The position numbers were made by a program, and so were the translations under genes. The notes below the pieces were generated by a model. The model did no database searches, was not told the origin of the DNA, and was given only the letters and a program-made list of their open reading frames with translations. 64,000 nucleotides of DNA, taken from assembly GCA_011939005.1 (NCBI GenBank), contig GCA_011939005.1_4858.1; one strand, 5' to 3'. This stretch comes from a phage. Below, piece after piece: positions 1,206 through 29,851 of this stretch (positions are counted from its first letter, which is position 1; each line of letters starts with the position of its first letter).

Positions 1206-1412
1206 GTTATTTACGTGTGTGGGGTATAATGTGACAATAAACCCCTAACTGTAACGATAACCCGAATCGCTTGTGCACAGTTAGCCACTTTTTTCGCACA
1301 AAAGCCGGTTTATTGTCAACTAATTTACGAGTCGGGGCAGTTAATATGCCTTGAAGTACAAGTAGTTGAACATAGGGTTCTTCTGCTATCATTTGTTAAT
1401 GGAGATAAGTAA

Positions 1413-1622
1413 ATGAGCATTCGTGAAATCACCGCAGGCAGCGACGTTTCTGGTCTGGTAGAAGCAGGCACCGTTCAGGTTTCTGGACTGAGCACCGTTA
1501 CCGAAGTTACCGAAGCGCTGGCTAAGAAAGCCGAAGCTGAAGGCGGCGTAGCATTTAAAGTTACCGCTTGCGGCGGCAACAACAAAATGTTCGGCAACGC
1601 CATCTATTACGTAAACGCGTAA
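1413..1622 (+). CDS. small DUF1471 (YdgH/BhsA/McbA-like) domain protein, no signal peptide
   Basis: 69 aa; RBS GGAGA; C-terminal pattern VSG...ALAKKAEAEGG..FKVTA.GGNNKMFGNAIYY matches the DUF1471 consensus as I recall it. Confidence 0.45.
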   Translation: MSIREITAGSDVSGLVEAGTVQVSGLSTVTEVTEALAKKAEAEGGVAFKVTACGGNNKMFGNAIYYVNA

Positions 1623-1649
1623 TCGGCCTGCAGGCAAAAAAAGATATAG

Positions 1650-1695
1650 GTACCCTACTCCCGTTGGGAGTAGGGTTTACCTTTTATTTTTTTCG
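1650..1695. terminator. bidirectional rho-independent terminator
   Basis: Stem CCCTACTCCC / GGGAGTAGGG with 4-5 nt loop, flanked by A-run upstream and T-run downstream; lies between convergent genes. Confidence 0.7.
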
Positions 1696-2946
1696 TGCTT
1701 TGTAGCGATGCATTTCAACAAATGGCTTACCCCAAGCCCCGAAAGGCCCGACGATTGCCTGCGCGTCGTTTACCAAATTCTGGTTATACCAACGCGCGTT
1801 CCCCAACAAAAAGTTTTCCCGGTCGAAGAATGTGGTATTAAAGACCCACTCCCCTTCTTCCCAGGTCGGCCAGTACCCTACACATTTACCAATACGGTTA
1901 AAGATAGGACCTAGCGTCTTCTTCCCATCTGGGTCAGTCGGGTCTTTTAAATAGAACCGGCCCCAGATAGCGTTGTGGCTTATTCCGTGAATCTCTTTTT
2001 CGAGATACGGGTTGTCTATCGTAAAGATAAACGAGGATTCGTGCGTCAGCAACGCTTTTAACGTTTCTGAGTTACGAATACGTTGAACGGACGTAGGCGT
2101 ACTTAAATCACCTACACCGATGGCGTCCCAATCGTAATAGCGACGGGTTTCCAATACAATCTTCGCCACGCTAAGGTTTGGCAGACTCAGCATAATCGCA
2201 CGGTCGCTGAAATAGCCCTGCGGTGGCAACCAATGCAGAATACCCCCGATGACGAACCCAACGGTTTTCCCTGTAATGGAATCGGGTAAGGTCAACATTA
2301 ACGAAGAATAGTAATCTCGCGTAGTATCGAGTTTGTTCATCGTTAAACCGGATATGGGGTAAGTCTTCACTTTACCAATATTCGCCATCACTAGACAGCC
2401 GATGTCGGGTGTGTTGGCTCTCCGCACGATGTTACCAGCACCGGTTAAGCGAACGCCCACAGGGTCAGATTGGTGCGGTACCCACTGACCGTTGATGTTG
2501 TACAGTACCCCGGTACGGTATTTTTCTTTCCACTCATCGTCGCAGACTACAACAACGTCGTGCGCATCATCAGGGTTGAAGTCCTGAGTGTAATGGTACC
2601 CAGGAGGGCACAGGTGCGTTTCTACGGGCACATCTGCATTAATAGACTGGTAATGTGCCTCAGCGAATTCTAACTTCGGTAGGCCTTTCCCAAGCGTTGG
2701 AATTGCGATTCCTGACTTGGTGTTTAACCAATCTTGCAACGTGTCCGTACGGTTTTGTAAATCAGCCAGGTGATACTGGCTATAGAAGGTATATTCGGCA
2801 CCTAGTGCTTCTAGTCCTACTTCGAAAAAGTGGTAGTTAGCACAAAGGGTATTTAAGGGCTGCGTGACATCGATGGTTCCCCAAGTTCGGGTGTCTCGAG
2901 AGAAGCCAAAAGCGCTGTCGGCCCGCACTTGATAAGCAGTAGTCAC
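1684..2946 (-). CDS. hypothetical protein (420 aa), likely virion/baseplate-associated
   Basis: Long ORF; apparent GTG start with GAGGA RBS; divergent from the fiber operon. Confidence 0.55.
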   Translation of the reverse strand: MTTAYQVRADSAFGFSRDTRTWGTIDVTQPLNTLCANYHFFEVGLEALGAEYTFYSQYHLADLQNRTDTLQDWLNTKSGIAIPTLGKGLPKLEFAEAHYQSINADVPVETHLCPPGYHYTQDFNPDDAHDVVVVCDDEWKEKYRTGVLYNINGQWVPHQSDPVGVRLTGAGNIVRRANTPDIGCLVMANIGKVKTYPISGLTMNKLDTTRDYYSSLMLTLPDSITGKTVGFVIGGILHWLPPQGYFSDRAIMLSLPNLSVAKIVLETRRYYDWDAIGVGDLSTPTSVQRIRNSETLKALLTHESSFIFTIDNPYLEKEIHGISHNAIWGRFYLKDPTDPDGKKTLGPIFNRIGKCVGYWPTWEEGEWVFNTTFFDRENFLLGNARWYNQNLVNDAQAIVGPFGAWGKPFVEMHRYKARKK

Positions 2947-3013
2947 TGGCTGTTTCCTCTAAGGATTCGGGTCATAGTATGAACTCGACGCCCTCAGAGA
3001 AAAGGAGTGTAAA

Positions 3014-6000
3014 ATGGCTGTCGTCCCTGACCCGCACTATCAAGAACCGGGGAATATGCAGACCGGTGAAGCGGTAACGCCGATCGGTACTAAGTACCGG
3101 ATGCTGTTCCCCGCACACGCCCCCTTTTATACCACATCCCTGGTGGTCAAGAGTGGCGGCAAGAAATTAACATTAGGTGATGATTACGTCATCACCCATG
3201 CGTACGTTACGGGCATGGCACGCACTGGCCATGTTTGTCACGGCGGCGTGTGGATTACCAACCCGAAATATCAGAGTGGCTTTACACTCGATTACCACGC
3301 AATTGGCATCGGTGAAGCCACTGCAGAAATGATCGCCGCAGAACGAGAAGCGAATAAAGATCGCTATCCCGTGGACTGCCAATGGGATAACGTCATTGGG
3401 GATTTATATTTCCCACCGGTCGATATTAAGTTCGATTGGGAAAACTGGCGTGGCGAATCTGAGTTGATGGAAGCCATTGTTGCGGTTGGTGCTAAGCTCG
3501 GTGAAGCGATCAGTCGCGTTGACCCGATTGCTCGTAACACGTTAGACCTTCAATATCGCGCCGGCGTCACGCTTATCACGTCCGAGCAGTATGCGACGTA
3601 CGACGGTACTGGCGGCTACACGTATAACGCGTCACGTCGTCGTTATTCGTTATCTTACCAGAACACGACATTCGATGCGTATTCGTTAGCGGTAAAATAC
3701 CGTTTACCGAGCATTCCACCGGAAACAACGTTGAACCCAGGCGAGTTGATCGATTGGATGCTCTGTTACGCAAACGGTGGGACAAGTATCCTGCGTCTTC
3801 AGTTGAAGCAACGCGCGATTTATCTTACCTTAACGACAGCGATTGGTTCCGGTTCGTCCAATTACAGCTATACGTTGACGACTGGCCTGACTGATACCGA
3901 GTTGGCGGGTGAGGTTGAGTTTAGCGTGGTCAGACGCGAAGGTAACGGCGTTTACGACATCACCGTTAAAACAAGCAAGCAAACCGTTAACTACAGCTTT
4001 AACGTTGACAACCCACCGAGCGAATTTGCACCAGGGTATCAGAAAACTGATGTCGCAAAATGGTTGAAGTTTAAATCGGGCGTCAACCTAAACTGGTGGG
4101 CAGGTGAGAACGATTACGTCCAGATTCGTTCATTACCAGGCGCACCGGCACCTGACGTTAACAATGACGTGTACCAGCTGCTGGTAAAATATCACCAGAT
4201 TGTCGATAAACTGTACCGTGATGCACCGGCACACACACACGTGCCGCGCAAGGATAACCCGCATCGCGATTCGTGGGGCGCAATCCGTGCTTTGGAGAAT
4301 AACGGTATTGCTTCGGACGCGACACTGGTATACGGAAAAACGCAACCGCAGCTGACAGATTACGTTAACAATCTGTTGCCGAAACTGTCAACGCTGGCGA
4401 ATAAGCTTTTACGTTTACCGGCGGCTGCACAGTCTATCATCGGCACGTTCGGCATGAAGCCTGGCCTGACTTCAATAACGTCAGCAGTGGGTACCGATGA
4501 GTCTGAAGGCGTGGGTGCACAATTCACGGTTGACCCGAGGGTTATCCGTTTTATTGGCCGCGATTCGCAAACCGTTAACGCCGGGAACAATCCGATTACA
4601 TGGCAAGGTGGGGCTAACCAACTCATCCTTTATCCGGATTCCCGTGGATTGGAGTTCAACGGTAAGAAACTGTTGGACCCTACTACGGTCGGGCCGTACC
4701 TGCCGGGTAACGAATCAGGTGGTGATGGACTGTTTTACGGAACATCCACAGCTACTGTAACCATTAACGGTAACGGTATTCAGTCTGTTCCGTTCATTTG
4801 TACCTTTGTTCCACCGGAGTCCGATGACCTTGGCCTGATGGCTGTCCGTTTGTTGGCTACTGAATTCGGCGATCGTGAGGACTTGGCCGCAACGCCGGCA
4901 CTCATCAAGAAATTGGATCAGCAGTTTACGGGCAAGTTGGTTGCCGTTAAATCGTACATCAACGACATGCCACTGACGAGTTCTATTTACATCGATAAAA
5001 CTAACTTCGGCTTATCGAACGTACAGAACATCCCAGATGTACAATTGCCGATTTCCCCGCTCCAACAAGCTGAGCTGGACAAGTATGCAGTCGTCGGTCA
5101 CAAACACACTTCTGCCGCGTTCGGGATTAAGCGTGCAACAACGACGGAGTTCGGTTTAGTACAGTTCGGCACCGCGGTTGACGATGCCACTCTGGCATTA
5201 GACGGTGGTGAGGTCATCCGACAGGCGGACGCCATCACAGAGATAGAGAAGGTTGCGAAGACAGTCGACTCTGGTGCTTCAATCAACATTATTCGTTACG
5301 GTTTACCCGGCACGGATATCATTGAAAACGGCATCACTTACACCGACTGGATGGTTACTATTAAAGCGAACGATTATTTCGTTGGTCGCGAGTACAAAGT
5401 ACCTCTCTCCACATTTAACTTGGCGGAGCTATTCCCAGCGACGCACGAAGATGCTGAGTTTGGCGTGTATGTTGACGCGGCGGGCGATGACGGCAAGTAC
5501 ATTATCTACGAAAATCCAAACACGGCAGAAACTGAGACGATGACCAAAATAGGTTCCATCATCACCAGTGAAACCGGTGTGGTTTTTGTAGAAATCCGCA
5601 ACGTGACGCGTTTAGGTGAGTTCCGTGAATTAGGCGAGCATATCGAGGATGATAACGCCCATATTCGTCGGGGCATGACGCAAGCTGAATTCGGATTTAC
5701 TTACGGTACGGGCGGGCCTGTGTGGTCCACGGGCGCACCGGGTACAAAACGTATAGATGCTGATTGGCGTTACGCGCAGGCTAGCGGCTATACGCCTATG
5801 TTGAAAGCGGACTACGATCCGGCTGCTGATAAATGGACGTTTAAAACAACCAGTTTATCTGTAACCGATTATCGTTTTGTCCACAACACGTTCCCGATGT
5901 TCCAGAATAACGGCATTACCGCAACGTGGACACCTTTAACCGCAACAGCGGACAGTGTGCTAGAAACGGTAATTGGGTGTTGTCATCACTCGGCCACGTT

Positions 6001-19426: not shown

Positions 19427-20341
19427 ATGACAGATCAAGTAGAATCCAGGATCTCGTCTGAACTGTACGACAAACCGTCAATTCTGTCGGTTGTCGCAAC
19501 TTCTAAGTGTAACTTAGACTGTAGCTTCTGTGGAGGGGCTTATTACATGGATAGAGAAGATACTTCTCGTGAGTTTCAACGTGAAGAGATTCTCTCGATT
19601 TTAGAGAAGAATCCGGATATCGGTGAGATTCATTGGACGGGCGGTGAGCCGCTGTTAGCGCAGCGCAAGATTGAAGACTTCGTGAACGAGTTGAAGGAGT
19701 CTCATCCGAACCTCCGTCATCACATGTACACCAACGGTTTAAAGATGCGTAAATCACATCTGCCGTTGCTGAAACAGTTCGACCTTATCTTTGTGTCCAT
19801 TGACGGCTACAAGAAGTCGGAACGTCCGTTTATGAACTTTGTAAACGGTGGTAATCACGAAGCGCTGGAAGTGCTGTACGAGCTGGACAACTATTACACC
19901 TGGGGTGTGATGACGCGTGACCAGTTAGGTGATAAACGCTGGTACGAAGATTTCATCGAGCTGCACCGAGCAATCTATCATTACCGTCCAGGTGGTATGT
20001 CGTTGCTGTTTGATGCGATGATGCCGAAACCGTTATCGCCAGACCACGTCATGAACTTCATGTACGGGTATTGGAAAATACTCGACAATATCGAACGCCT
20101 TAACATGCAGAACGATTCTGAATGTGGGCTTGCGATCAGTAAAATGTTCGATACCGAGTGCAACACGTGCAGTGAAGTGCTGTGGCTTAACGCCGACGGT
20201 ACGCAGGAGCAAATTCAGAACGCCCCAGAGATATTGGAAGTCGGCTGTAATCGCCTGGCGCGTTCTATCGGCGTTGATGCGTATAACTACATCAACCGTG
20301 TAATTTCTGCTAAGCGTAAACGGGCGGCGAACAATGAGTAA
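19427..20341 (+). CDS. radical SAM enzyme (about 304 aa)
   Basis: C-x3-C-x2-C (CNLDCSFC) about 28 aa from the internal ATG start (RBS GGAG); GGEPLL motif; extra C-terminal cysteines (CGLA...CNTC...C) suggest an auxiliary cluster. Confidence 0.75.
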   Translation: MTDQVESRISSELYDKPSILSVVATSKCNLDCSFCGGAYYMDREDTSREFQREEILSILEKNPDIGEIHWTGGEPLLAQRKIEDFVNELKESHPNLRHHMYTNGLKMRKSHLPLLKQFDLIFVSIDGYKKSERPFMNFVNGGNHEALEVLYELDNYYTWGVMTRDQLGDKRWYEDFIELHRAIYHYRPGGMSLLFDAMMPKPLSPDHVMNFMYGYWKILDNIERLNMQNDSECGLAISKMFDTECNTCSEVLWLNADGTQEQIQNAPEILEVGCNRLARSIGVDAYNYINRVISAKRKRAANNE

Positions 20342-21662
20342 TAGCGAACAGCAAATCCAGTACACACCACGCACGTATCAGGTTGTGACTAACCTGTCAT
20401 GTAACCTGGACTGCGAATACTGCTACGAGCGTAAATATCCACGCAATAACAAAGTAGCTGACGTGATTGATTTTATCCACGCTTGCTTCGAGCGCGATAA
20501 AGATATCCCGAACGTTGAAGTCATCATCGATATCATCGGTGGTGAGCCGTTCATGCAGCCTAAACTTCTTTTGGCGGCCTTTGAAACCGCAGAGAAGTTA
20601 TGCGCAGAACACAATCGCCCGTATATGTTCAGTATCTCCACGAACGGTACACTTCTGGACCGTCCGCTGAACAAAGAAATTATCGAGCGCTGGAAAGACA
20701 AACTGTCTATTGGGGTCTCCATCGATGGTTTACCTGAAGTCCATGACAAATATCGTATCTTTACCACGACGCGTGAAGGGTCGTACGAAGCTGCGGTACG
20801 TGGTTACAATTATCTGAAGAGTGTTGGCATCGCTGAACTGGGCGTAAAGGCGACGTTTACGATCGATACATTGCCGCACTATGCCGCCAGCATGAAATCG
20901 TTAATTGACATGTCCGGCGGTGGTACCATTTCTGGTAACGTAACGTACGAAGATATCCTACCGCGCCATATGGCGTTGGATATCGCGAACCAGATGATGG
21001 ACGTGATGGACTACTGGATTGAGAAGGGTCTGCACACCAACCCGCGTAACACGATTACACACATCATCCCGGATGGCCTGAACTTTATGGCAACTTGGGA
21101 CCCGGATTGGCGTGACAAACTCTTACATGACGACTCTGTTCGTCTCGACCCAGAACGCCTGAAACCGTACTGCGGTACGTTGACGCACATGACCTGTCTC
21201 GGCTTTGATCGCAAGATTTACGGTTGTAACCGTTTCATGTCCACGGTAACTTCCCGTTCTGCTGTAGCAGAACTGGTCGGTCGTGAGTTTGTGAGCCTGG
21301 ACGGTGGTAAGCTGTTAGAAGAGATTCAAACGCAGTACACCAACTACCCAGAAACCTGTTTAGGGTGTCCGATGAAACACAGTTGCGGTAGCTGCGCGGC
21401 AGCATCGTACGAAAACGGTGAAGGTACACTGGAAGACCGTAAAGCGTATCATGCCGAGCGTCGTCAGTGTGGTTGGACTACTGCGAAGCTGATGGCGGCA
21501 GAATATTGGTATCAGAAAACTGGTACGACCCGCGCATCAGATTTGCATGATAAATCCATGTGCTATTGTTCACGTTGTGTACGCCAACGTGCTGAAGCAG
21601 AAAAATTACAAAACGGAGCCCAGAATGAAGTCAATACTGATTCACAATTTTACGAAGCGTAA
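20334..21662 (+). CDS. radical SAM enzyme with SPASM-like C-terminal domain (442 aa)
   Basis: CNLDCEYC near N-terminus; C-terminal cysteine cluster C-x2-C-x5-C-x2-C plus upstream Cys; start ATG overlaps stop of the upstream radical-SAM gene (translational coupling). Confidence 0.8.
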   Translation: MSNSEQQIQYTPRTYQVVTNLSCNLDCEYCYERKYPRNNKVADVIDFIHACFERDKDIPNVEVIIDIIGGEPFMQPKLLLAAFETAEKLCAEHNRPYMFSISTNGTLLDRPLNKEIIERWKDKLSIGVSIDGLPEVHDKYRIFTTTREGSYEAAVRGYNYLKSVGIAELGVKATFTIDTLPHYAASMKSLIDMSGGGTISGNVTYEDILPRHMALDIANQMMDVMDYWIEKGLHTNPRNTITHIIPDGLNFMATWDPDWRDKLLHDDSVRLDPERLKPYCGTLTHMTCLGFDRKIYGCNRFMSTVTSRSAVAELVGREFVSLDGGKLLEEIQTQYTNYPETCLGCPMKHSCGSCAAASYENGEGTLEDRKAYHAERRQCGWTTAKLMAAEYWYQKTGTTRASDLHDKSMCYCSRCVRQRAEAEKLQNGAQNEVNTDSQFYEA

Positions 21663-22191
21663 ACTGCACTTGGTCGATCGCTTCCTGCGCAAAAGCAAGC
21701 TGTACAATGTGCACGCAATTGTGGCAGGGGAAGACTTCACTGATGAAATCCAAAGCCTGTTGATTAAATACGGGCTGAATGTGATGATCCCGGTCTACTG
21801 CGTTGAGAAAGGACACGAGTCTGTCGCAGAAATCGAAAAGCGCAATCCTGGCTTTGAGAAGCGATTGCTCGCATACCCACGCCACAAAATCGAACTGCTA
21901 CGTCATTCCATCGATGAAGCCAGTCCTGAAAGTTTAGTGGCTTTGGGCTTGTCTTTCCCGCGGATGCGTATTCGTAACTTACGCTCCAATAATCCGGTCG
22001 ACGCGTATTACACAGAGCGTCAAATCTTTGAAGAACATCTGCTCCCGCAGTTGGAAGAAGAAGAGCAACACAACATTTCGTTGTTGTGGGCCGGTAACCT
22101 CGATCAGGACTTCCAGATGCTGGACTTCGGTTTGTTGTTAGAACTTGGCCTGATTGAGGAGGACGAATGTCTGTTACTGACAAAAGCTTAA
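21625..22191 (+). CDS. hypothetical protein (about 188 aa)
   Basis: Internal ATG with RBS GGAG; overlaps end of upstream gene; same operon. Confidence 0.45.
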   Translation: MKSILIHNFTKRKLHLVDRFLRKSKLYNVHAIVAGEDFTDEIQSLLIKYGLNVMIPVYCVEKGHESVAEIEKRNPGFEKRLLAYPRHKIELLRHSIDEASPESLVALGLSFPRMRIRNLRSNNPVDAYYTERQIFEEHLLPQLEEEEQHNISLLWAGNLDQDFQMLDFGLLLELGLIEEDECLLLTKA

Positions 22192-22838
22192 CGAACGAAG
22201 AGATCCGCGCCCGTTATTTCCAGCGCAATTTGCCGATTGACCGACACGGCAACTTCATGGAACGTATCGGTGCAGAGGATCAAGGCCGTACAGGCTTTTG
22301 CGCTCTGCTCCATTATCATCTCATCGAAGGGATGTCTGATAAAGAAGCCCTGGCACGCATGAAGCTGTATGAGATGTCGGAGATTGAAGCTAACTTCACA
22401 TTGAAACGCACGAAAGAGTTTATTGCTAATGTGCTGGAGATTGACCTCGACGAAATTCGCGGGAATCTAAAATCTACCGCACGTTACATTTACGAAGACG
22501 TGCAGAAGATGCTGTTGGAACTCGACCACCGCTACGAAGATGAGCGCCATGGTTATATCGAGTTTGAAGGTAGTCACTTTCAAGCCGATGAATCGTCGCG
22601 TACCATCCTCGGTCAATACATTCAGGCAGATACCGCACCAGAATACTGGCTCGATACGCTGAATACTAAGCACAGTCCGTTTACAGTAGACCAATGTAAA
22701 GCGTTGTTGGGCGCTATTGTTGCACGCGACCAAGTGTTGCACTCAGCAATGGCAGATAACAAACGCCAAATCCGTGAGTTAGCTGAAAAGCGCGATTACA
22801 CTGGATTAAAAACATTGTCCGAGTCACTCGGCATGTAA
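22167..22838 (+). CDS. hypothetical protein (223 aa), last gene of operon
   Basis: RBS GAGGAGG; followed by strong terminator. Confidence 0.5.
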   Translation: MSVTDKSLTNEEIRARYFQRNLPIDRHGNFMERIGAEDQGRTGFCALLHYHLIEGMSDKEALARMKLYEMSEIEANFTLKRTKEFIANVLEIDLDEIRGNLKSTARYIYEDVQKMLLELDHRYEDERHGYIEFEGSHFQADESSRTILGQYIQADTAPEYWLDTLNTKHSPFTVDQCKALLGAIVARDQVLHSAMADNKRQIRELAEKRDYTGLKTLSESLGM

Positions 22839-22919: not shown

Positions 22920-23447
22920 TTAAACGAATCCGTCCAGTTCACCGTTGGTGGTACTCAGGTCAGTTTTAACGATTGGCTGCGTTACAGTATAAACTGCAAG
23001 GCTGGCAGGCTGGTATTTAATGTGGCCTTCTTTCACCTTAACAGTGATGATTTTCTCACCACTGTCGCCGTCCTCGCGTGTAATGGTGAGTTCAGACAAT
23101 GCAAACGCATCTTCCGTTTTACCGGCAGCAATTAGATCTGCGTTGACAAAAGCAAGCACTTCTTCATCGGTATCCCATTCTGCCTGGTCAGCGGTAACTG
23201 CTTTCGCACCGATGATGTTCAATGAATCGAGGCGGGTATAATGCAGCTCTTTCTCGCCAGTAAAGTTAGCGGATTCCGCGGTGGCAGTGATGGTGAGTTT
23301 GGAGTTGCGATGGTCTCCAGAATCTGCTGGTGAATAGTCAGCAACAGCGCCGAATGTAACGTCAGCAGAAGTTAACGGACTAGACAGTCCGCTGTTTGCA
23401 GCATTAAACAGCGCAACGAGTTGGTCTTTTGCAGAGATGACTGCCAT
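22920..23447 (-). CDS. fiber-like protein, short member of the N-domain paralog family, C-terminal NGELDGF motif
   Basis: Internal ATG with RBS AAGGAAA; N-terminus resembles the 36982-43059 array; ends TNGELDGFV. Confidence 0.5.
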   Translation of the reverse strand: MAVISAKDQLVALFNAANSGLSSPLTSADVTFGAVADYSPADSGDHRNSKLTITATAESANFTGEKELHYTRLDSLNIIGAKAVTADQAEWDTDEEVLAFVNADLIAAGKTEDAFALSELTITREDGDSGEKIITVKVKEGHIKYQPASLAVYTVTQPIVKTDLSTTNGELDGFV

Positions 23448-23571
23448 GGTTGTTTCCTTATAGTAGGTTTGTGGTGCATACCAAATCATTCTAAAAAATA
23501 CATAGTGGGGTTAATATGACAGTAAAGTTGGCTGTTAAACGAGAAAGTTTTTACCACTGAAAGGATACCTT

Positions 23572-24063
23572 ATGAAACGTCTATTTATCGTATTCGCGAT
23601 TATAAACCTGTTGGTCGGTTGTGTTCAGTCGCCAAACAACATCGGGCAATTTAGCGCCACGCCAGTAAAGAATCACGACTTGGTGATTTATACATGCACA
23701 GGAACGCAGGAGAAGTTTGTAGACTACCGTCCGGTTCTGGACAACCTACAAATGATGCCGCGGTCAGTAACAGTATTGGATGTGGGTGCAAGCTGGGTAG
23801 CAACGTGGGACGGTGGCAAACTTGAGTCACCGATGATGTTTAAAGATACAATTGGCAAAATCGACGGGAATGTTAACACCACCACAGGTGAGCGTTATTA
23901 CCGTATTAATAAAACCGTAAACGATAGCCCCACTTACTCTTTTTCGGATGTGAACCCGTATACCGGCGAAGGTAAAGGGATGACATTCTTTCGCTGCAGC
24001 AGCGGGTTTATCGGTGAAGTTCCTACCCCGATTACGATTGTTCCGTTAGAAGAAAATAAATAA
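23572..24063 (+). CDS. predicted lipoprotein (163 aa)
   Basis: N-terminal signal peptide with lipobox (LLVGC); followed by GNRA-loop terminator. Confidence 0.6.
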   Translation: MKRLFIVFAIINLLVGCVQSPNNIGQFSATPVKNHDLVIYTCTGTQEKFVDYRPVLDNLQMMPRSVTVLDVGASWVATWDGGKLESPMMFKDTIGKIDGNVNTTTGERYYRINKTVNDSPTYSFSDVNPYTGEGKGMTFFRCSSGFIGEVPTPITIVPLEENK

Positions 24064-24110
24064 TGCTTACCCACTCCCGTAAGGGGAGTGGGTAAGGGCT
24101 TTATTTACCC
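24064..24110 (+). terminator. rho-independent terminator
   Basis: Stem TTACCCACTCCC / GGGAGTGGGTAA with GTAA loop, then T-rich tract. Confidence 0.7.
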
Positions 24111-24188
24111 TCTAAAACGCTCTGTAACGCTCTCTAAGCGCATTAAACGTATCAAATGATAAATGATATTACTTTTGATTAAAGTGGC

Positions 24189-24704
24189 TTAGATTTTAAC
24201 TAGCTTGCTCCAATCGATGGGTTGTTGCTTAACCACTTTAACGGTACCACGTGTCGGTGACCAGAAGGTGATATCAGGCTGGTTGCGTACGTCAACATGC
24301 AGCCAGGTAATATCGCACTCGATAAAGTGAATAAATGGAAACTCGTCAGGGTTCGCGGCAATATAATCGTGCACTTTCTGCAACGGAGTATCAAGCATTG
24401 TTGCATCAAACGCATTACCGAATTTATGCATACTGCCTGATTCGGCGTACAGTTTGTTTGCACGAGTTTGCCAATCGCCACCCTTTGGTTTCTCTTGATT
24501 AATAAAGAACTGCAGGGTACGCAGACTACGCTGTTGCTGGGAACTGGTTAAAATCACCATCCGCCCAAAACGATTACGAATCTGTTGGAGCGAGATTAGC
24601 AGTAACGGATTAAGGAAACGAATAGCACCTTCACCGTATTTCGCGATGTACTCCTGCGGCATCAACTCTTTTAACGCGAAGTTGGCAGGATTCGGATGAA
24701 ACAT
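24189..24704 (-). CDS. peptidase M15-like zinc peptidoglycan peptidase (171 aa), putative
   Basis: Motifs S-M-H-K-F-G-N-A-F-D (S.H..G.A.D) and W-L-H-V-D consistent with the His/Asp/His zinc site of M15/VanY-type cell-wall peptidases. Confidence 0.45.
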   Translation of the reverse strand: MFHPNPANFALKELMPQEYIAKYGEGAIRFLNPLLLISLQQIRNRFGRMVILTSSQQQRSLRTLQFFINQEKPKGGDWQTRANKLYAESGSMHKFGNAFDATMLDTPLQKVHDYIAANPDEFPFIHFIECDITWLHVDVRNQPDITFWSPTRGTVKVVKQQPIDWSKLVKI

Positions 24705-24713
24705 TTTCTCTCC

Positions 24714-25355
24714 TTAAGGGGTAGTCAGGAACGCGCGTTTGATATTCAAATACTGCACGTTTACCGGTTGCCCATTAGTAATGTCAACACGTTCGTGTTC
24801 AGGAATCGCTAACGTACGCGATGTTCTAAAGAACAGGTAGTTGCGATTATAGGACAACGTCTTTTCTACCGGCCGGCTATAAACCACCTTAGAGTTATCG
24901 TCTACATAGGACGGCCAACCAAACTCGTGAACGGCATGGTAGAAGGACTTACGAATAAAGGTGTCAACGCCTAATGCCTCCATGATGCGTAAGAACATCA
25001 AGTCAGCGAACGTTTTGTCACATGCACGAGATAGATTACCTTCAACGGTGTCAGGGTAAAAGCCTACCGATGAACGTTTCTGGTAAAACAAATCATGCAC
25101 ACAAGCGGCAGCGGCCCAAGGCCCATCCGGATGCAGGATAGGACGTAACGTTTCTGGAATGCTTGCCAGGTCCGTCACAAATCCTCTCGGTACCGTTACC
25201 CATAACGGGGTATCCGGATGCACACCTGCTAATGCTACCATCGCATCCATTCCGGTCTGTTCACGATAGAGGCTGCGCAACGTAAACTCGAAATGGAAAT
25301 CATCCGTGAGGATAAACCACGGCTTCTCTAACAACTTATACTTAAGTGCTTCCAT
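24714..25355 (-). CDS. DUF1353 domain protein (213 aa)
   Basis: GFVTDLASIP....HPDGPW....HD..Y pattern typical of DUF1353. Confidence 0.45.
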   Translation of the reverse strand: MEALKYKLLEKPWFILTDDFHFEFTLRSLYREQTGMDAMVALAGVHPDTPLWVTVPRGFVTDLASIPETLRPILHPDGPWAAAACVHDLFYQKRSSVGFYPDTVEGNLSRACDKTFADLMFLRIMEALGVDTFIRKSFYHAVHEFGWPSYVDDNSKVVYSRPVEKTLSYNRNYLFFRTSRTLAIPEHERVDITNGQPVNVQYLNIKRAFLTTP

Positions 25356-25643
25356 ACTGACCTCATGTCATATAACGCACGAGCATCGTGAGGACCATTA
25401 ATCCCAGTAAAATGGGCATTAAGCCTTTCGGCCAGTCGTCGTTGTCGTATTGCATGGCTTTACCCTCTGACAGAAGATCGTGCGTAATAGTTTGAAGAAC
25501 CCAGAATCGTAATACGTTTCCGGAACAGTTTGTACTTCGGGGAACTTAGGCGGAGTTGGACGGTGGGTCATTACGTTTTCTCCTTGCAGCAAAAACAAGG
25601 GCGCGCCAGATAGCTTTCATTAAGGCAGCAAACCAATTCTGTT

Positions 25644-26297
25644 TCATTTACACATCCCCAACTTAGCCACGTAGTCTGGCATTTCCTGATAGACGCGGCC
25701 ATACCAGCCGTAAGTAAACTCTTCGTTATCCTCACGCCCTTCACTGATTTCCGTGTAGTACGCTACCTGATGACAGGTTAAAGCGAATATCAGTCGATTT
25801 AGGCCCTCTTCCCCACGAGCTTTGATAAAGCCTTCTAACGCTGTTAACGTACGTGGTCCAATACCACCGTCGGCATCGATATCGTCGTACAGTTTACCCT
25901 GACGGTTTAATACGTTCAGAATGCGCTGCAGGGACTTGATACAGTTGCCACGACCTGCGTTGATGCCGAAATCAAACATCCGGTCAGCTAGCAGGACATT
26001 CATTTTCATAATCTGGTCTAAGCGCATCCGCTGCCACCAGAGCTTGTTGTAAATGTCTAACGCGGTTTCTAGGCTCAGGTCACGCATATCCCCTTTATAG
26101 CCATATTCACGCGCCGTGAGTTCGGTGACACCACGGTTCGTTGCTTTACCCAAATCTTTCGGGTTATTAACGTAACCGGCTTCGATGTTTACTTTGGCAC
26201 GAATAATGCCCTCTTTACTCCAACGATCGACCACGATAACCTCCTGCGTTGATAGGGTCATAAAAAGAAAGCCTCTTCCCCGTGGGGAAGAGGGCAT
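25644..26297 (-). CDS. endolysin: GH108-type muramidase with C-terminal peptidoglycan-binding domain
   Basis: EAGYVNNPKD.G..T..GVT...YGY.GDM motif (GH108) and DADGGIGPRTLTAL (PG_binding_3-like). Start ambiguous: M1 at 26297 or M13 at 26261, which sits immediately after a hairpin. Confidence 0.8.
   Translation of the reverse strand: MPSSPRGRGFLFMTLSTQEVIVVDRWSKEGIIRAKVNIEAGYVNNPKDLGKATNRGVTELTAREYGYKGDMRDLSLETALDIYNKLWWQRMRLDQIMKMNVLLADRMFDFGINAGRGNCIKSLQRILNVLNRQGKLYDDIDADGGIGPRTLTALEGFIKARGEEGLNRLIFALTCHQVAYYTEISEGREDNEEFTYGWYGRVYQEMPDYVAKLGMCK
26268..26296 (-). terminator. hairpin terminator after the 722-aa gene, overlapping the possible 5' end of the endolysin gene
   Basis: Stem CCTCTTCCCC / GGGGAAGAGG, T-run on minus strand. 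Confidence 0.5.
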
Positions 26298-26348
26298 GGG
26301 TTATTCTCAGGCTTTAACCCCGTCAAGTTCCTCGTTAAATTATGATAA

Positions 26349-28517
26349 CTATTTCTTTGGCCGCACCCACGGTTTAGGGGCGGATTTGGTATACGGATTA
26401 CATTCCATCATCTTACCGAGGTAGGCATCGTAATACACGAAGCGATCGACATAGAACTTCTCCACCGGTGCACTACTGGTAGCCGATTTCACCCGGTTGC
26501 GTTCCACAGCGAGGCTAATCGCCCCGGTAGGTGCGGGTTTTAGCGTGAACATTACCGCGCGGTTGTAACGCCAAGTGTCGTGCACAATATCAAACTCCGA
26601 TACACAGTGTGCCATGATACCAAACAATGTGGTGGCTGGTAAGTTGGCTACAGCATCGCCGTATGGTGTTCCCACCAAACCGCCGGGTATGTTTTGCTTT
26701 TTGAACAGCGTACCTGAAATAATCGTACCTAAGAACTCCACAACTACAGGCTTGGTTGGGTCGGTGACTTTATCTATCCCATCCGCACTGGCCAATCGGT
26801 TGGCATCTAAATCTGCGAGGTAGTCGAGGAACTCTTGGTACTCGTCGGTAACATTCGGTTTCACCGTTCCGACGGATACCCAGTTGACGATACTTTTATT
26901 CCCACCGACAGCTTCGCCTGCCATCCCAGGGCGAGTCCATGACATCCCGTCTTCACGACCGTAGACATAGACTGGCGAGCCGGTAGCCGGGGTGTTCCAT
27001 TGCTCGAACGCTGTATATCGTCCCGGCTGGCCCCAATCCCCACCCGGACCGCCATAGTAGCGACTCTGGTAGCCGGTAAATTGCGCGACGACTAACTGGG
27101 TAGCACCGCCTTTGTCACGGGACCCAGCTAAGCCGTTACGGTTATTGGTGCCGCTGGGCACCGCCGCGCCTGGCCCGAGAGGCGCACCACCAGCTCCACC
27201 GATCTTGGTGGTGCTAAACGCATAGTAGTCGCCCCCACCCCCACCACCGGCGATGGTGCCGTAGTTTTCGATGGTGACTTTGCCACGGAAGGTATCGCTA
27301 ATGTGGATTGCGTCAGCTCCGTCCGCTGATGTGTTCGCAGGCATAGAGTAGACCACACCCGAACCACCACGACCAAGAATGGTTCCCCGGTTAACGAAGT
27401 TCCAAACCACCTCGCCAATTTGCGGCAATTCGTCGATAACGAACGTCGGTTTCAGGTTGCTGTCGCGATAAACGAAAGCCCCCGCATCTACGGTCACGTT
27501 AACAAACAAACGCCCGCACGCCGCATGGTTGGTCAACGTTGTGGCCCAGTAGCTGTCCGAAAGTTGCGACGTAGTTGTGTAGTTCAGGTTAAGGGTTTGC
27601 TCGTTATCTTGATAGCGTGCTACATTCAACGTGGCACTGCCCATGACTTTGTACGAACCCTCTACGGGTGCCAATTGCACTTGTCTCGGCCACTCGCCTG
27701 CCAGGTTCTCTACAGGAGCAATTTCGTTTACATCAAAAACACTCCGAATGCCGAGTGTCTCGATGGCCAGAGCATCGTGCAGGCTACCGGTGAAATCATC
27801 CGGGACGTATGTGGTTTTGCCTGCATATGTCTCGAGTTTGTTACGTGAGAAGAACACATACTTCGTTCCAAACATCCCGCTCCCCGGTCTAGCGGTCAAA
27901 GCTACGACGCTGTTATACGCAGAGGTTTGGCCTATATCCTCCGGGGACATCGGGGCGCTGACATCGACTTTATCAAGATCCACGATCCGTTTGGTTGCAT
28001 TAGAGTAGAAGTTAATCCACTGCTGCTTATTCGCAGCCTTTAGCGTGAAAATGATATTGGTAACAGTGTAGACAGTGTTGATATCCACGTCACCGTTTAT
28101 CACATCTAGCGTTTGGCTGCCGTACCAGATAAGACTTGTCTGTTTCGCCTGGAACGTGATGCGCGCAGCATTGTTTGTCCAAGTGATGGGCAGGTCTTCA
28201 AAGTCGTCGGTTAAAAAGGTAATCCCTAGTAGAGTGTCTAAATGCGGCAACAGTTCGTGGATGGACGCACAAGTGGGAATGGCATCCAACTTAACCTTGG
28301 CGAAATAATCAGCAATATTTTGCTTCGTGACTTGGGCCGTAATTTGACCGTAACTAGAATACCCCGGACCCCCTGTCAGTGTGACGTCTAGGGTTTTTTC
28401 GTCACGATGCGCCACGGACACCAGGCGTACGTTAGCGGGGTCTACTGCTTTGGCGACCGCGTTTTTACGGTTGAGCGACCGAATCACGGTCGCCACTAAA
28501 TCGGGAGTGTATGACAT
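26349..28517 (-). CDS. fiber-like protein (722 aa) with Gly-rich region; N-domain paralog family
   Basis: RBS AAGG; N-terminal module resembles the array genes; poly-Gly/GGxGG segment. Confidence 0.6.
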   Translation of the reverse strand: MSYTPDLVATVIRSLNRKNAVAKAVDPANVRLVSVAHRDEKTLDVTLTGGPGYSSYGQITAQVTKQNIADYFAKVKLDAIPTCASIHELLPHLDTLLGITFLTDDFEDLPITWTNNAARITFQAKQTSLIWYGSQTLDVINGDVDINTVYTVTNIIFTLKAANKQQWINFYSNATKRIVDLDKVDVSAPMSPEDIGQTSAYNSVVALTARPGSGMFGTKYVFFSRNKLETYAGKTTYVPDDFTGSLHDALAIETLGIRSVFDVNEIAPVENLAGEWPRQVQLAPVEGSYKVMGSATLNVARYQDNEQTLNLNYTTTSQLSDSYWATTLTNHAACGRLFVNVTVDAGAFVYRDSNLKPTFVIDELPQIGEVVWNFVNRGTILGRGGSGVVYSMPANTSADGADAIHISDTFRGKVTIENYGTIAGGGGGGDYYAFSTTKIGGAGGAPLGPGAAVPSGTNNRNGLAGSRDKGGATQLVVAQFTGYQSRYYGGPGGDWGQPGRYTAFEQWNTPATGSPVYVYGREDGMSWTRPGMAGEAVGGNKSIVNWVSVGTVKPNVTDEYQEFLDYLADLDANRLASADGIDKVTDPTKPVVVEFLGTIISGTLFKKQNIPGGLVGTPYGDAVANLPATTLFGIMAHCVSEFDIVHDTWRYNRAVMFTLKPAPTGAISLAVERNRVKSATSSAPVEKFYVDRFVYYDAYLGKMMECNPYTKSAPKPWVRPKK

Positions 28518-28531
28518 GGTGACACCTTAGT

Positions 28532-29851
28532 CTATAGCGCTGGATACCAAGGGACCGGGGCAGTTTTGCTATATGGACTGTAGACCATATAGCCGCCTTT
28601 GCTTGGGTCGTAATAGATGAAATAGTTACAGTAATTCGAGTAGAGGCTCGTCATTTGTTTGGATTGGTATCCGTTACGGTATAGTCCCTGGTAAGTAGTA
28701 GCTGATGTCGTGGTGGTGTAAGCAGTGTGGTACAGTACCCGACGTCGGTTAGCAATACTTTCTTGGAACATCTCTTCGGTCGGAAACGCGTGTTGCATCA
28801 GCCGTCGAATACTCCCGGTACAGTATCGAGTGCCATACGGGGAACCCGTTAAATCATCCGCAGTTTCAGGCGATTCTGCCCGAGTCAACACGTACTCGTT
28901 TTGATACAACGTGACGCTCATCGAATTTGGGCTGGTTTCCCGGAAACTCATGTAACGCGCATAACGTTCGACGTCCTCTTCCTGCGCCAAATAGGCCACG
29001 TTATTTTTCGGACCAAAGTGCAAGAAGAACGGACGGCGGAGATTACCCATATCCTCAGGTGGCGTCAACTTCACGCAGTAATTGTACTCCCCACGCATAT
29101 CAGGGTCTAAGCCTGGGTTGTTATTGCGTGTAGCGACATACCCATAGAGGTCATACGGGTTATCAGTAGCAGCATTACCGATAGTGAACGGGATGCCCGA
29201 CCATGCCGACAGCGCCGCGATGAACTGGGTCATGTACGAGTTACTGTTTAGTCGCAGCGGGGTACCCATCTGGATATTGATTATCTGTTGGGTGTACATG
29301 CTCCAGTCGAGTCGATAGACCGTGCTGTAAACATCCATGGGTTCCCAAGCTCCGGTTTCGGTGGTGTGGTACAAGTCGGCAAAGCTGGGCTCTTCACGAA
29401 TAAAGCTAATAGGAATGTGACCCGTGAATGCGGGGTTATCCGATTTAATCGCCACCGTCCGATCGCCCGTTGCCACAGTGATCATTGCAAACTGGCTGTC
29501 AGGATACGTTAAATCGTCAGCAGTAAGCACCAGCCCACAAGCTGCGGAAATCCGGTCGATGATGTCGCGGTAGACCGTCGCCCGATAAGGTACTTTAACC
29601 GGTACGCTGACGCCTTTAAAATACTGCGAAAGGTTTAAGCGGTCGTAGTAGATGTCCATCTTACCGCTGTAACCACCACCCTGTAATCCGTTTACCACGA
29701 TACGGCTGTTGCGACCATCGCGCAAGGCATTGGTTAAAGGACCTTGTAATAACGCCACGTTGGTTGCGTTGAGCGGTTTCTTGAGCTGCGGGTTATCACG
29801 ATTAATCTGATCCCAAACCAGTTGCATGACAGGTTTGTTATAGTTGATCAT
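28532..29851 (-). CDS. fiber-like protein (439 aa), N-domain paralog
   Basis: Starts MINYNKP..L..QINRDNP, VYYDRLNL motif shared by family. Confidence 0.6.
   Translation of the reverse strand: MINYNKPVMQLVWDQINRDNPQLKKPLNATNVALLQGPLTNALRDGRNSRIVVNGLQGGGYSGKMDIYYDRLNLSQYFKGVSVPVKVPYRATVYRDIIDRISAACGLVLTADDLTYPDSQFAMITVATGDRTVAIKSDNPAFTGHIPISFIREEPSFADLYHTTETGAWEPMDVYSTVYRLDWSMYTQQIINIQMGTPLRLNSNSYMTQFIAALSAWSGIPFTIGNAATDNPYDLYGYVATRNNNPGLDPDMRGEYNYCVKLTPPEDMGNLRRPFFLHFGPKNNVAYLAQEEDVERYARYMSFRETSPNSMSVTLYQNEYVLTRAESPETADDLTGSPYGTRYCTGSIRRLMQHAFPTEEMFQESIANRRRVLYHTAYTTTTSATTYQGLYRNGYQSKQMTSLYSNYCNYFIYYDPSKGGYMVYSPYSKTAPVPWYPAL

Follow-up and report, generated by a model that had tools for sequence, protein, structure and literature searches.

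A candidate lysis cassette with a phospholipase-like DUF1353 protein in an SPN3US-like jumbo phage

A stretch of phage DNA of 64,000 nucleotides (NCBI GenBank assembly GCA_011939005.1, contig GCA_011939005.1_4858.1), here called the window, was analyzed for a group of minus-strand genes at positions 24189-26297 encoding a GH108 muramidase, a DUF1353 protein and a predicted M15-like zinc peptidase. The region from 23500 to 26400 matched 33 Seoulvirus genomes over its full length at 96-97% identity; this set comprised SPN3US, the SPFM and SPLA series, MET_P1_082_240 and the E. coli phages EC001 and Lh1B. The DNA is a new isolate, a giant phage of Salmonella, of this known group of jumbo, nucleus-forming phages (SPN3US-like, Seoulvirus). 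The three open reading frames (ORFs) are the counterparts of SPN3US_0156, SPN3US_0157 and SPN3US_0158 and are referred to as gp156, gp157 and gp158. In RefSeq, gp156 is an 'endolysin', gp157 a 'tail assembly chaperone' and gp158 a 'hypothetical protein', and a Pharokka-style record names the same trio 'endolysin', 'tail assembly chaperone' and 'endolysin'; both hydrolase calls pre-exist as automatic annotation. Several SPFM records (LR535901, LR535917 and others) match the region as up to 40 short pieces with gp157 and gp158 frameshifted; these deposits seem to contain errors of sequencing or assembly, and the pattern would not be biological.

All three ORFs were found on the minus strand at the positions given in a first-pass annotation made from the sequence alone, the muramidase at 25644-26297, the DUF1353 gene at 24714-25355 and the peptidase gene at 24189-24704. 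The 5' end of the muramidase at 26297 could not be kept, being only the mechanical limit of a 217-codon ORF which is too long. Five bases separate an AGGAGG motif at 26245-26240 from a GTG at 26234, from which a protein of 196 amino acids (aa) would be translated. This codon lies one residue ahead of the conserved VDRWS, and 196 aa is the length of the annotated muramidase homologue of pEa_SNUABM_29. Other starts are ATG 26261, used in the SPN3US annotation, and ATG 26297, which gives the longest ORF; judged from the sequence context, GTG 26234 is probably the start of the muramidase gene.

Upstream of the unit, a terminator-like hairpin at 26272-26293 (minus strand; nine pairs, six of them G-C, then CTTTCTTTTT) lies between the stop codon of the preceding head-paralog gene (26349) and the muramidase start, and it falls within the 36-63 nt by which the 217-codon ORF is extended at its 5' end. 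A bidirectional terminator-like hairpin of 13 pairs at 24066-24096 ends both the unit and a convergent lipoprotein gene. Within the unit, the muramidase stop codon overlaps the start of a micro-ORF, ORF-a (ATGA), and the peptidase gene has its Shine-Dalgarno sequence AAGGAG at the end of the DUF1353 gene, overlapping the stop codon of the latter. Because of these two overlaps and the hairpin at each end, the muramidase gene, the micro-ORFs described below, the DUF1353 gene and the peptidase gene were taken as a single expression unit; they are one tight same-strand unit. A scan for sigma-70 promoters returned two sites as compared to 5.3 expected; since transcription in phiKZ-like phages relies on RNA polymerases of the phage itself, the scan is uninformative.

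Profile searches with the Pfam models for GH108, PG_binding_3 and DUF1353 all scored above the gathering thresholds and thereby bore out the respective domain calls of the first-pass annotation. The muramidase (25644-26234, minus strand) matched Glyco_hydro_108 (PF05838) at E=2.3e-18 with 66.9 bits (cut-off 21.2), and PG_binding_3 (PF09374) at E=7.5e-19 with 68.1 bits (cut-off 24.6). Furthermore, phmmer against PDB sequences returned 6V3Z (Sen1395) at E=1e-41 and 6V40 at E=1e-39. In the motif N-I-E-A-G-Y of the phage protein, the glutamate aligns with that of E-G-G-Y in Sen1395 and 6V40, which we take to be the catalytic residue of the GH108 family. Inspection by eye revealed no signal peptide. 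Together with its PHROG match, these data assign gp156 as a predicted soluble N-acetylmuramidase with a GH108 domain and a PG_binding_3 domain, belonging to the TtsA/Sen1395 family; it would be expected to cut glycan strands.

The peptidase (171 aa, 24189-24704, minus strand) is more divergent. Pfam Peptidase_M15_3 matched at E=0.008 with 16.7 bits, under the cut-off of 23.2, and the match was limited to residues 32-55; among PDB sequences, neither phmmer nor profile hmmsearch found a match to gp158 above chance level. PHROG_894, labeled 'endolysin', matched at E=2.7e-26, a confident structure model showed the LAS/M15 (Hedgehog/DD-peptidase) fold, and H93, D100 and H136 (H-x6-D...H) were invariant in 18 homologues. 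The earlier call of an M15-like zinc peptidase is thus carried by the PHROG match, the model fold and the invariant residues and not by Pfam, and gp158 is best described as a predicted zinc peptidase of the LAS/MD clan. It would cut stem peptides or cross-links and could be a second or alternative endolysin.

The interval of 290 bp between the muramidase and DUF1353 genes was translated in the window and in SPN3US, pEa_SNUABM_29, phiEaH2, Asesino, Caitlin and Wellington, which revealed three small ORFs (33, 50 and 30 aa) that overlap one another and are conserved. It had been noted before that no canonical holin is recognizable among ORFs of at least 60 aa; this is true, and the candidates, with 30-50 aa, fall under that limit. 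ORF-a (25546-25647, minus strand; 33 aa, MKQNWFAALMKAIWRALVFAARRKRNDPPSNSA) starts with the ATG in the muramidase stop. It is predicted to form a cationic amphipathic helix of charge +6 with a hydrophobic moment of 0.64-0.71, and it matched PHROG_25143, a PHROG of no assigned function, at E=3e-12. Its pattern MK-x-NWF-x-x-LM-[KR]-A-x-x-RAL-x-x-A-x-R-[RK]-x-R is common to phiEaH2, Asesino and pEa_SNUABM_29, and comparison with the SPN3US codons showed five synonymous and no non-synonymous changes. ORF-b (25419-25571, minus strand; 50 aa) is preceded by AAGGAG and overlaps both ORF-a and ORF-c in another frame; its amphipathic motif D-S-G-F-F-K-L-L-R-x-I-F-x-x-R-V is kept in phiEaH2, Asesino and pEa_SNUABM_29. 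ORF-c (25363-25455, minus strand; 30 aa, MQYDNDDWPKGLMPILLGLMVLTMLVRYMT) is annotated in SPLA5c and kept in pEa_SNUABM_29. When the small ORFs were inspected for transmembrane helices, ORF-c was found to combine an acidic N-terminus with a single hydrophobic helix (Kyte-Doolittle 2.0), ORF-a being amphipathic.

The micro-ORFs are, on this evidence, genuinely coding, because their amino acid sequences are conserved across genera, ORF-a has five synonymous against zero non-synonymous changes and matches PHROG_25143, and the products have amphipathic or transmembrane character. The one hydrophobic helix of ORF-c makes a holin-like role possible. At the same place, Wellington encodes another single-helix peptide (gp174, 37 aa), and Caitlin gp167 (50 aa) resembles the N-terminus of ORF-b joined to an ORF-c-like helix. 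The idea derived from Caitlin gp167 that ORF-b and ORF-c are one frameshifted gene was rejected as unnecessary, because pEa_SNUABM_29 has separate, ATGA-coupled ORF-b and ORF-c, and phiEaH2 and Asesino have ORF-b alone.

The DUF1353 protein gp157 (213 aa, 24714-25355, minus strand) had been treated in the first-pass annotation as a passenger of the unit; its place in the unit was confirmed, whereas it turned out to be the most informative gene of the set. Pfam DUF1353 (PF07087) matched at E=2.2e-17 with 62.9 bits, above the cut-off of 22.5, and likewise matched all 34 aligned homologues (24-77% identity). In these, residues P56, G58, T61, D62, A64, S65, P67, G78, H87, D88, D118, V142 and G146 were invariant. 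The protein showed no signal peptide by eye. To the same family belongs TtaP, a lone DUF1353 domain encoded by the fifth gene of the typhoid-toxin islet and a distant homologue of the group XIV secreted phospholipases A2 (PLA2s). Its PLA2 activity was shown by experiment and is abolished by the exchange D85A; the catalytic His-Asp and the distal Asp are H70, D71 and D85 (PMC11525133). The five-gene islet encodes the muramidase TtsA alongside TtaP, and Salmonella prophages carry both DUF1353 proteins and TtsA-like muramidases (PMC11525133).

A direct comparison of gp157 with PLA2s was made by hhalign. The DUF1353 profile aligned to three solved group XIV PLA2 sequences, which had been checked against PDB, at E=0.0008-0.0017. 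Residues were matched via the Streptomyces enzyme (SvPLA2), and H87, D88, D118, V142 and G146 fell on the PLA2-invariant residues H64, D65, D85, V118 and G122; in the global alignment, F-V-T-D-L-A-S was placed onto W-S-T-D-L-C-T, i.e., TDLAS onto the TDLCT loop. Phmmer and profile hmmsearch of gp157 against PDB sequences gave chance-level matches only, a Pfam scan of the 34 homologues at E-values up to 10 returned no PLA2 family, and Foldseek with the gp157 model found nothing below E=1 in PDB. The assignment of gp157 as carrying a predicted PLA2-like core rests mainly on family membership and conserved catalytic residues, with weak independent support from the fold. PHROG_1158, labeled 'tail assembly chaperone', matched gp157 at E=4.3e-66; this label appears to be positional, an annotation.

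The neighborhood of DUF1353 genes was examined in 15 jumbo relatives from IMG/VR. GH108 was a neighbor in 12 and an M15-like gene in nine of them; none had neither. Three layouts were distinguished. Seoulvirus and five metagenomic contigs have GH108, micro-ORFs, DUF1353 and M15-like genes in this order. Machinavirus, Wellingtonvirus and others have DUF4376, GH108, a micro-ORF and DUF1353 without an M15-like gene. Derbicusvirus (CR5, Phobos, Derbicus) has DUF4376, DUF1353 and M15-like genes and no GH108 within 5 kb. Additionally, phiEaH2 and Asesino (Erskinevirus) have GH108, a micro-ORF and DUF1353 with no adjacent M15-like gene and with virion-structural genes upstream. Linkage of a hydrolase with DUF1353 is kept across five genera. 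Judged from gene order, DUF1353 is the constant core, and the two hydrolases act as its interchangeable partners, as alternative endolysins would.

Unrelated phages showed a similar association. An annotated endolysin or holin was located at most three genes from DUF1353 in six of ten GenBank phages. Fusobacterium phage phiRTG5 has the order endolysin, one other gene, DUF1353, holin, and Fusobacterium phage FNU4 has autolysin, two other genes, DUF1353, holin. M15 and DUF1353 genes are separated by one gene in Caulobacter phage DMCA, a lysis gene directly adjoins DUF1353 in Pseudomonas phages Bjorn (lysozyme, DUF1353) and Cygsa01 (DUF1353, endolysin), and in Nitratiruptor phage NrS-2 DUF1353 is followed after two genes by a lysozyme gene. 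In a survey of 20 non-redundant IMG/VR contigs, ORFs within 1.8 kb of DUF1353 were concatenated and scanned with Pfam, which revealed a lysis family in seven: Phage_lysozyme in L114, the lambda-S holin family in L109, SLT in L121, holin_4_1 in L107, the order M15_4, one other gene, DUF1353, holin_4_1 in L103, the order Amidase_2, DUF1353, transmembrane protein, lipoprotein in L157, and the lambdoid late region of L153 (IMG/VR 2740892177_000005, 3227-5716). The latter encodes antiterminator Q, a peptidase which is M15-like by eye and has no Pfam match, a Pfam-supported P21/HP1-type holin, a lipoprotein-like ORF of 165 aa and DUF1353, so that DUF1353 occupies the usual place of Rz/Rz1. Beyond these seven, L140 and L135 have lysin-like neighbors by eye only. 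In total, a recognized endolysin or holin was found near DUF1353 in 13 of 30 unrelated contexts, as compared to a chance rate of about 10% which is our own estimate (3.6-kb window, one lysis cassette, genome of 35-50 kb) and not a matched control. All named host genera among the phage matches are diderm bacteria.

The 51 DUF1353 loci of bacterial genomes (L028-L077) were left out of the above count, as they reveal little on the function in phages; in only one of the 51 did a neighbor match a small library of lysins and holins by tblastn. Many of these loci belong to Alphaproteobacteria (Caulobacter, Phenylobacterium, Hyphomicrobiaceae, Xanthobacteraceae), and distant DUF1353 homologues in the alignment of 34 have N-terminal signal-like segments, which points to a branch of secreted family members outside phages. 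At L135 (IMG/VR 3300045806_000070, 1277-4650), DUF1353 lies between genes for a reverse transcriptase (RVT_1) and a DUF7338 protein, and an ORF about 1 kb downstream of DUF1353 has an M15A-like SxH...D motif by eye. DUF4376 genes, of which the window contains one at 22167-22838 (plus strand), are close to DUF1353 across unrelated phages (L007, L010, L004, L005, L018, L017, L119, L104, L107) and within 5 kb in 15 of 15 jumbo relatives; in SPN3US-type genomes the unit is inverted relative to the DUF4376 gene. This pairing may have a meaning of its own, e.g., as a tail-fibre-like module.

Taken together, we favor with moderate confidence the reading that the unit is the host-lysis cassette of the SPN3US-like jumbo phage. 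The first-pass annotation had also called it a lysis module; the domains, the tight unit and the comparative linkage uphold this, whereas the occurrence of gp157 in virions and a third muralytic gene elsewhere in the genome speak against it. Its remark that two hydrolases in one cassette are notable has to be qualified, as two per phage are not unusual in themselves (PMC11180984). SPLA5c, a close relative annotated with PHROG throughout (258 features), has no annotated holin and no annotated spanin, and only the gp156 and gp158 homologues are labeled 'endolysin' there. The lack of a holin or spanin annotated elsewhere in SPLA5c fits the unit as the lysis device, albeit as weak evidence. Within the unit itself, neither a spanin pair nor a unimolecular spanin was found.

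The data show the identities of the domains, the conservation of catalytic residues, the coupling of the genes and the retention of micro-ORFs and linkage in relatives; we infer each activity, the late timing and the order of events in the following scheme. The unit would be transcribed from the late head-gene operon by read-through of the hairpin upstream of it, and the muramidase, the peptidase and the phospholipase, all of them signal-less, would build up in the cytoplasm. The three micro-ORFs would be translationally coupled, and one or more of their peptides, i.e., the two cationic amphipathic helices and the 30-aa transmembrane helix, would permeabilize the inner membrane in a holin-like manner, by which the enzymes would reach their substrates. 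Muramidase and peptidase would then degrade the wall, and gp157 as a TtaP-type PLA2 would hydrolyze envelope phospholipids and complete the rupture of the envelope. Most plausibly, gp157 would accomplish the outer-membrane step which spanins or disruptins perform in other phages. Perhaps it is silent in the low-calcium cytoplasm and activated by external calcium, a conjecture drawn purely from group XIV PLA2 chemistry.

Several observations weigh against this interpretation. ORF-a, ORF-b and ORF-c matched no holin or spanin family in PHROG, and to our knowledge all holins described are larger than 30-50 aa. The survey of neighbors had no formal control, DUF1353 repeatedly adjoins DUF4376 or tail-fibre genes across phages, and spanin-like genes are also present at some DUF1353 loci (L157), so that a replacement of spanins is not general. 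An exported SLT protein encoded elsewhere in the genome is a candidate for the main endolysin. In the literature, no data on activity, timing or phenotype of the gp156-gp158 genes were found. Deletion of ttaP in S. Typhi caused no envelope phenotype (PMC11525133). Finally, particles of three SPN3US head-protein mutants, 47(am1), 218(am101) and 244(am84), yielded no identification of gp157 (PMC5694885), and its presence in virion heads suits a function at entry no less than one in lysis.

The virion data deserve attention. By mass spectrometry of SPN3US virions, gp157 (24.5 kDa) was identified with four unique peptides, nine spectra and 25% coverage and was assigned to the 'Head'; gp156 was not listed among the virion proteins, and traces of gp158 were judged non-specific by the authors (PMC5694885). 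Accordingly, gp157 might be a low-copy, head-packaged ejection protein which acts at entry on the host inner membrane, e.g., in the passage of genome or proteins. Its adjacency to wall hydrolases would then reflect a shared envelope target, and the GH108 protein may still be the endolysin. This explanation, the main rival, is rather unlikely, but it draws on the head assignment, on the absence of gp157 from particles lacking ejection or virion RNA polymerase (vRNAP) proteins, and on gp156 not being listed, which makes bulk contamination by products of the unit not obvious; in addition, phiKZ-like phages including SPN3US enclose the injected DNA in a lipid vesicle (bioRxiv 2024.03.24.586471). 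Against it, gp157 stands at the bottom of the virion abundance list, where the equally faint gp158 and gp100 were dismissed as non-specific by the same authors, most nucleus-forming phages are without DUF1353, small phages have DUF1353 sandwiched by endolysin and holin genes, and TtaP works in a bacterium without any virion. A related and doubtful proposal is that head-packaged gp157, ejected with the DNA, remodels or later opens the host-derived early phage infection (EPI) vesicle round the genome; such a PLA2 may act again at lysis. Such a protein would be the phage counterpart of the PLA2 in the capsid of parvoviruses.

The SLT protein outside the window (240 aa, N-terminus MFRTILFLLVAMTTFNSNAS) is encoded at 184582-185304 of SPLA5c (L025 34582-35304) and matched Pfam SLT at E=2e-6. 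Its N-terminus is hydrophobic, signal-like or of signal-arrest-release (SAR) type, and it is a possible exported third muralytic enzyme of this phage group. One may argue that this protein is the true endolysin, and that gp156-gp158 carry out local wall or membrane remodeling or functions related to superinfection. Such an N-terminus on a gene at 184.6 kb of SPLA5c, the SLT type of the phiKZ endolysin gp144 and the finding that cells need not lyse when TtsA-type muramidases act (PMC11525133) are in favor of this idea. We nevertheless hold it to be improbable, as gp156 is closest to the prophage-type Sen1395, is encoded beside membrane micro-ORFs, an arrangement typically seen in lysis cassettes, and belongs to a hydrolase-DUF1353 linkage retained in five genera.

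The weakest explanation is that gp157 is a non-enzymatic tail or tail-fibre assembly chaperone working with the DUF4376 protein and fibre genes, as proposed by the PHROG_1158 label and by a DUF4376 or tail-fibre gene directly upstream of DUF1353 in RSL2, NrS-2, a Helicobacter prophage, L119, L104 and L107, besides the proximity of DUF4376 in all 15 jumbo relatives. It is highly improbable: no experiment behind the label was found, a chaperone has no use for the His/Asp/Asp of a proven PLA2 which are invariant in 34 homologues, lysis cassettes commonly come after fibre genes, which accounts for the adjacency, DUF1353 of L153 follows Q, the M15-like (by eye) peptidase and the holin with no tail genes in the 1.8 kb examined, and SPN3US gp157 was assigned to heads, not tails. 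The label probably arose because DUF4376 and tail-fibre genes recur upstream of DUF1353, and this recurrence lends some weight to a tail-related role.

A close parallel to the unit is the TtsA-TtaP pair of the typhoid-toxin islet. In both, genes of the Pfam families GH108 and DUF1353 occur together; gp156 is similar to solved structures of the TtsA family (E=1e-39 to 1e-41), gp157 keeps His/Asp/Asp, and neither phage protein has a signal peptide by eye, TtaP being likewise without an overt one. The phage set differs by the addition of the zinc peptidase and three micro-ORFs. Moreover, gp157 with 213 aa exceeds TtaP (125 aa) by extra beta-rich N- and C-terminal parts and has a loop of about 10-16 residues between the His and the distal Asp. 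TtsA mediates toxin release without general lysis and requires an LD-cross-linked wall, whereas no such specificity is known for the phage muramidase. Regarding group XIV PLA2s (S. violaceoruber 1LWB/1FAZ, Tuber borchii 4AUP), the columns for His-Asp, the distal Asp and Y-x-A-V-x-x-F-G align with gp157, whereas gp157 has neither disulphides nor a secretion signal, shows less than 20% identity and has the additional beta-rich ends; this similarity is too low to prove homology alone.

With the S-R-Rz/Rz1 genes of lambda, the unit shares its compact same-strand organization, a signal-less soluble endolysin and small overlapping membrane-active ORFs. It differs by lacking a recognizable holin or spanin family, by the small size of its membrane ORFs (30-50 aa), and by having two hydrolases and a phospholipase-like enzyme. 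In mycobacteriophages, LysB is a lipid esterase, and the disruptin of phiKT is a cationic amphipathic peptide, as predicted for ORF-a and ORF-b. The LysA/LysB and disruptin systems follow the same logic in that a second enzyme or peptide hits the outer lipid layer after the wall has been cut; there is no sequence relationship, the hosts here are ordinary diderm bacteria, and the chemistry is that of a PLA2 versus a mycolyl esterase. The peptidase gp158 shares its model fold and H-x6-D...H with M15/LAS endolysins (T5 L-alanoyl-D-glutamate peptidase, Ply500, LysB4) and LD-endopeptidases (VldE) and differs from them by its Pfam M15_3 score under the threshold, its long helical N-terminal half and the lack of a wall-binding domain.

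The genes flanking the unit were also inspected. The convergent gene at 23572-24063 (plus strand) encodes a predicted lipoprotein of 163 aa, a homologue of SPN3US gp159 with the lipobox LVGC and the N-terminus MKRLFIVFAIINLLVGC. It belongs to PHROG_9559, is predicted to reside in the outer membrane as the residue after the Cys is not Asp, and shares the terminator of the unit. A gp159-like lipoprotein occupies the same position in four of five Erwinia relatives checked; lipobox-bearing homologues were seen at this place in phiEaH2, Asesino, Wellington and pEa_SNUABM_29. The protein may take part in lysis or in superinfection exclusion. Its interpretation as an o-spanin was not adopted, as the gene is convergent, the mature protein would be 146 residues long, and a matching i-spanin was not seen.

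On the minus strand, members of a large DUF7941 paralog family are encoded at 26349-28517, 28532-29851 and 22920-23489; this family and gp155 were assigned to the head in published SPN3US proteomics. In the gp155 homologue (722 aa), a Gly-rich domain nevertheless resembles Gp38, the tail-fibre adhesin of T-even phages (Pfam E=7e-18), and matches tail-fibre PHROGs; for a 'head' protein, such an adhesin-like domain is surprising. Furthermore, two adjacent radical-SAM genes (one at 20334-21662 on the plus strand, the other upstream of it) are followed by two small conserved genes with overlapping ends (21547-22191, plus strand). This block is syntenic with the unit in CR5, Phobos, Caitlin and Wellington.

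A search of the literature on phage lysis together with phospholipase A2, DUF1353 or TtaP revealed no paper tying DUF1353 to phage lysis. As far as the searchable literature shows, the recognition of DUF1353 as a phospholipase-like, recurrent endolysin partner in phages of diderm hosts appears to be new, and the same appears to hold for the link to the TtsA-TtaP pair and for the three conserved micro-ORFs. Likely lysis genes, including three micro-ORFs which are barely or not annotated, can now be named for SPN3US, the genetic model of nucleus-forming jumbo phages, which has neither a holin nor a spanin annotated, and both hydrolases and the small disulphide-free PLA2 are candidate enzybiotics or industrial enzymes. 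If DUF1353 is indeed a lysis-associated phospholipase, the widespread label of PHROG_1158 as 'tail assembly chaperone' would be wrong, and phages of diderm bacteria would possess, beside spanins and disruptins, an unrecognized enzymatic means of membrane destruction. The TtsA-TtaP pair would then have been domesticated from part of a phage lysis cassette, with a testable origin and role, and TtaP would supply the perturbation of the outer membrane which TtsA-dependent toxin release needs in vitro.

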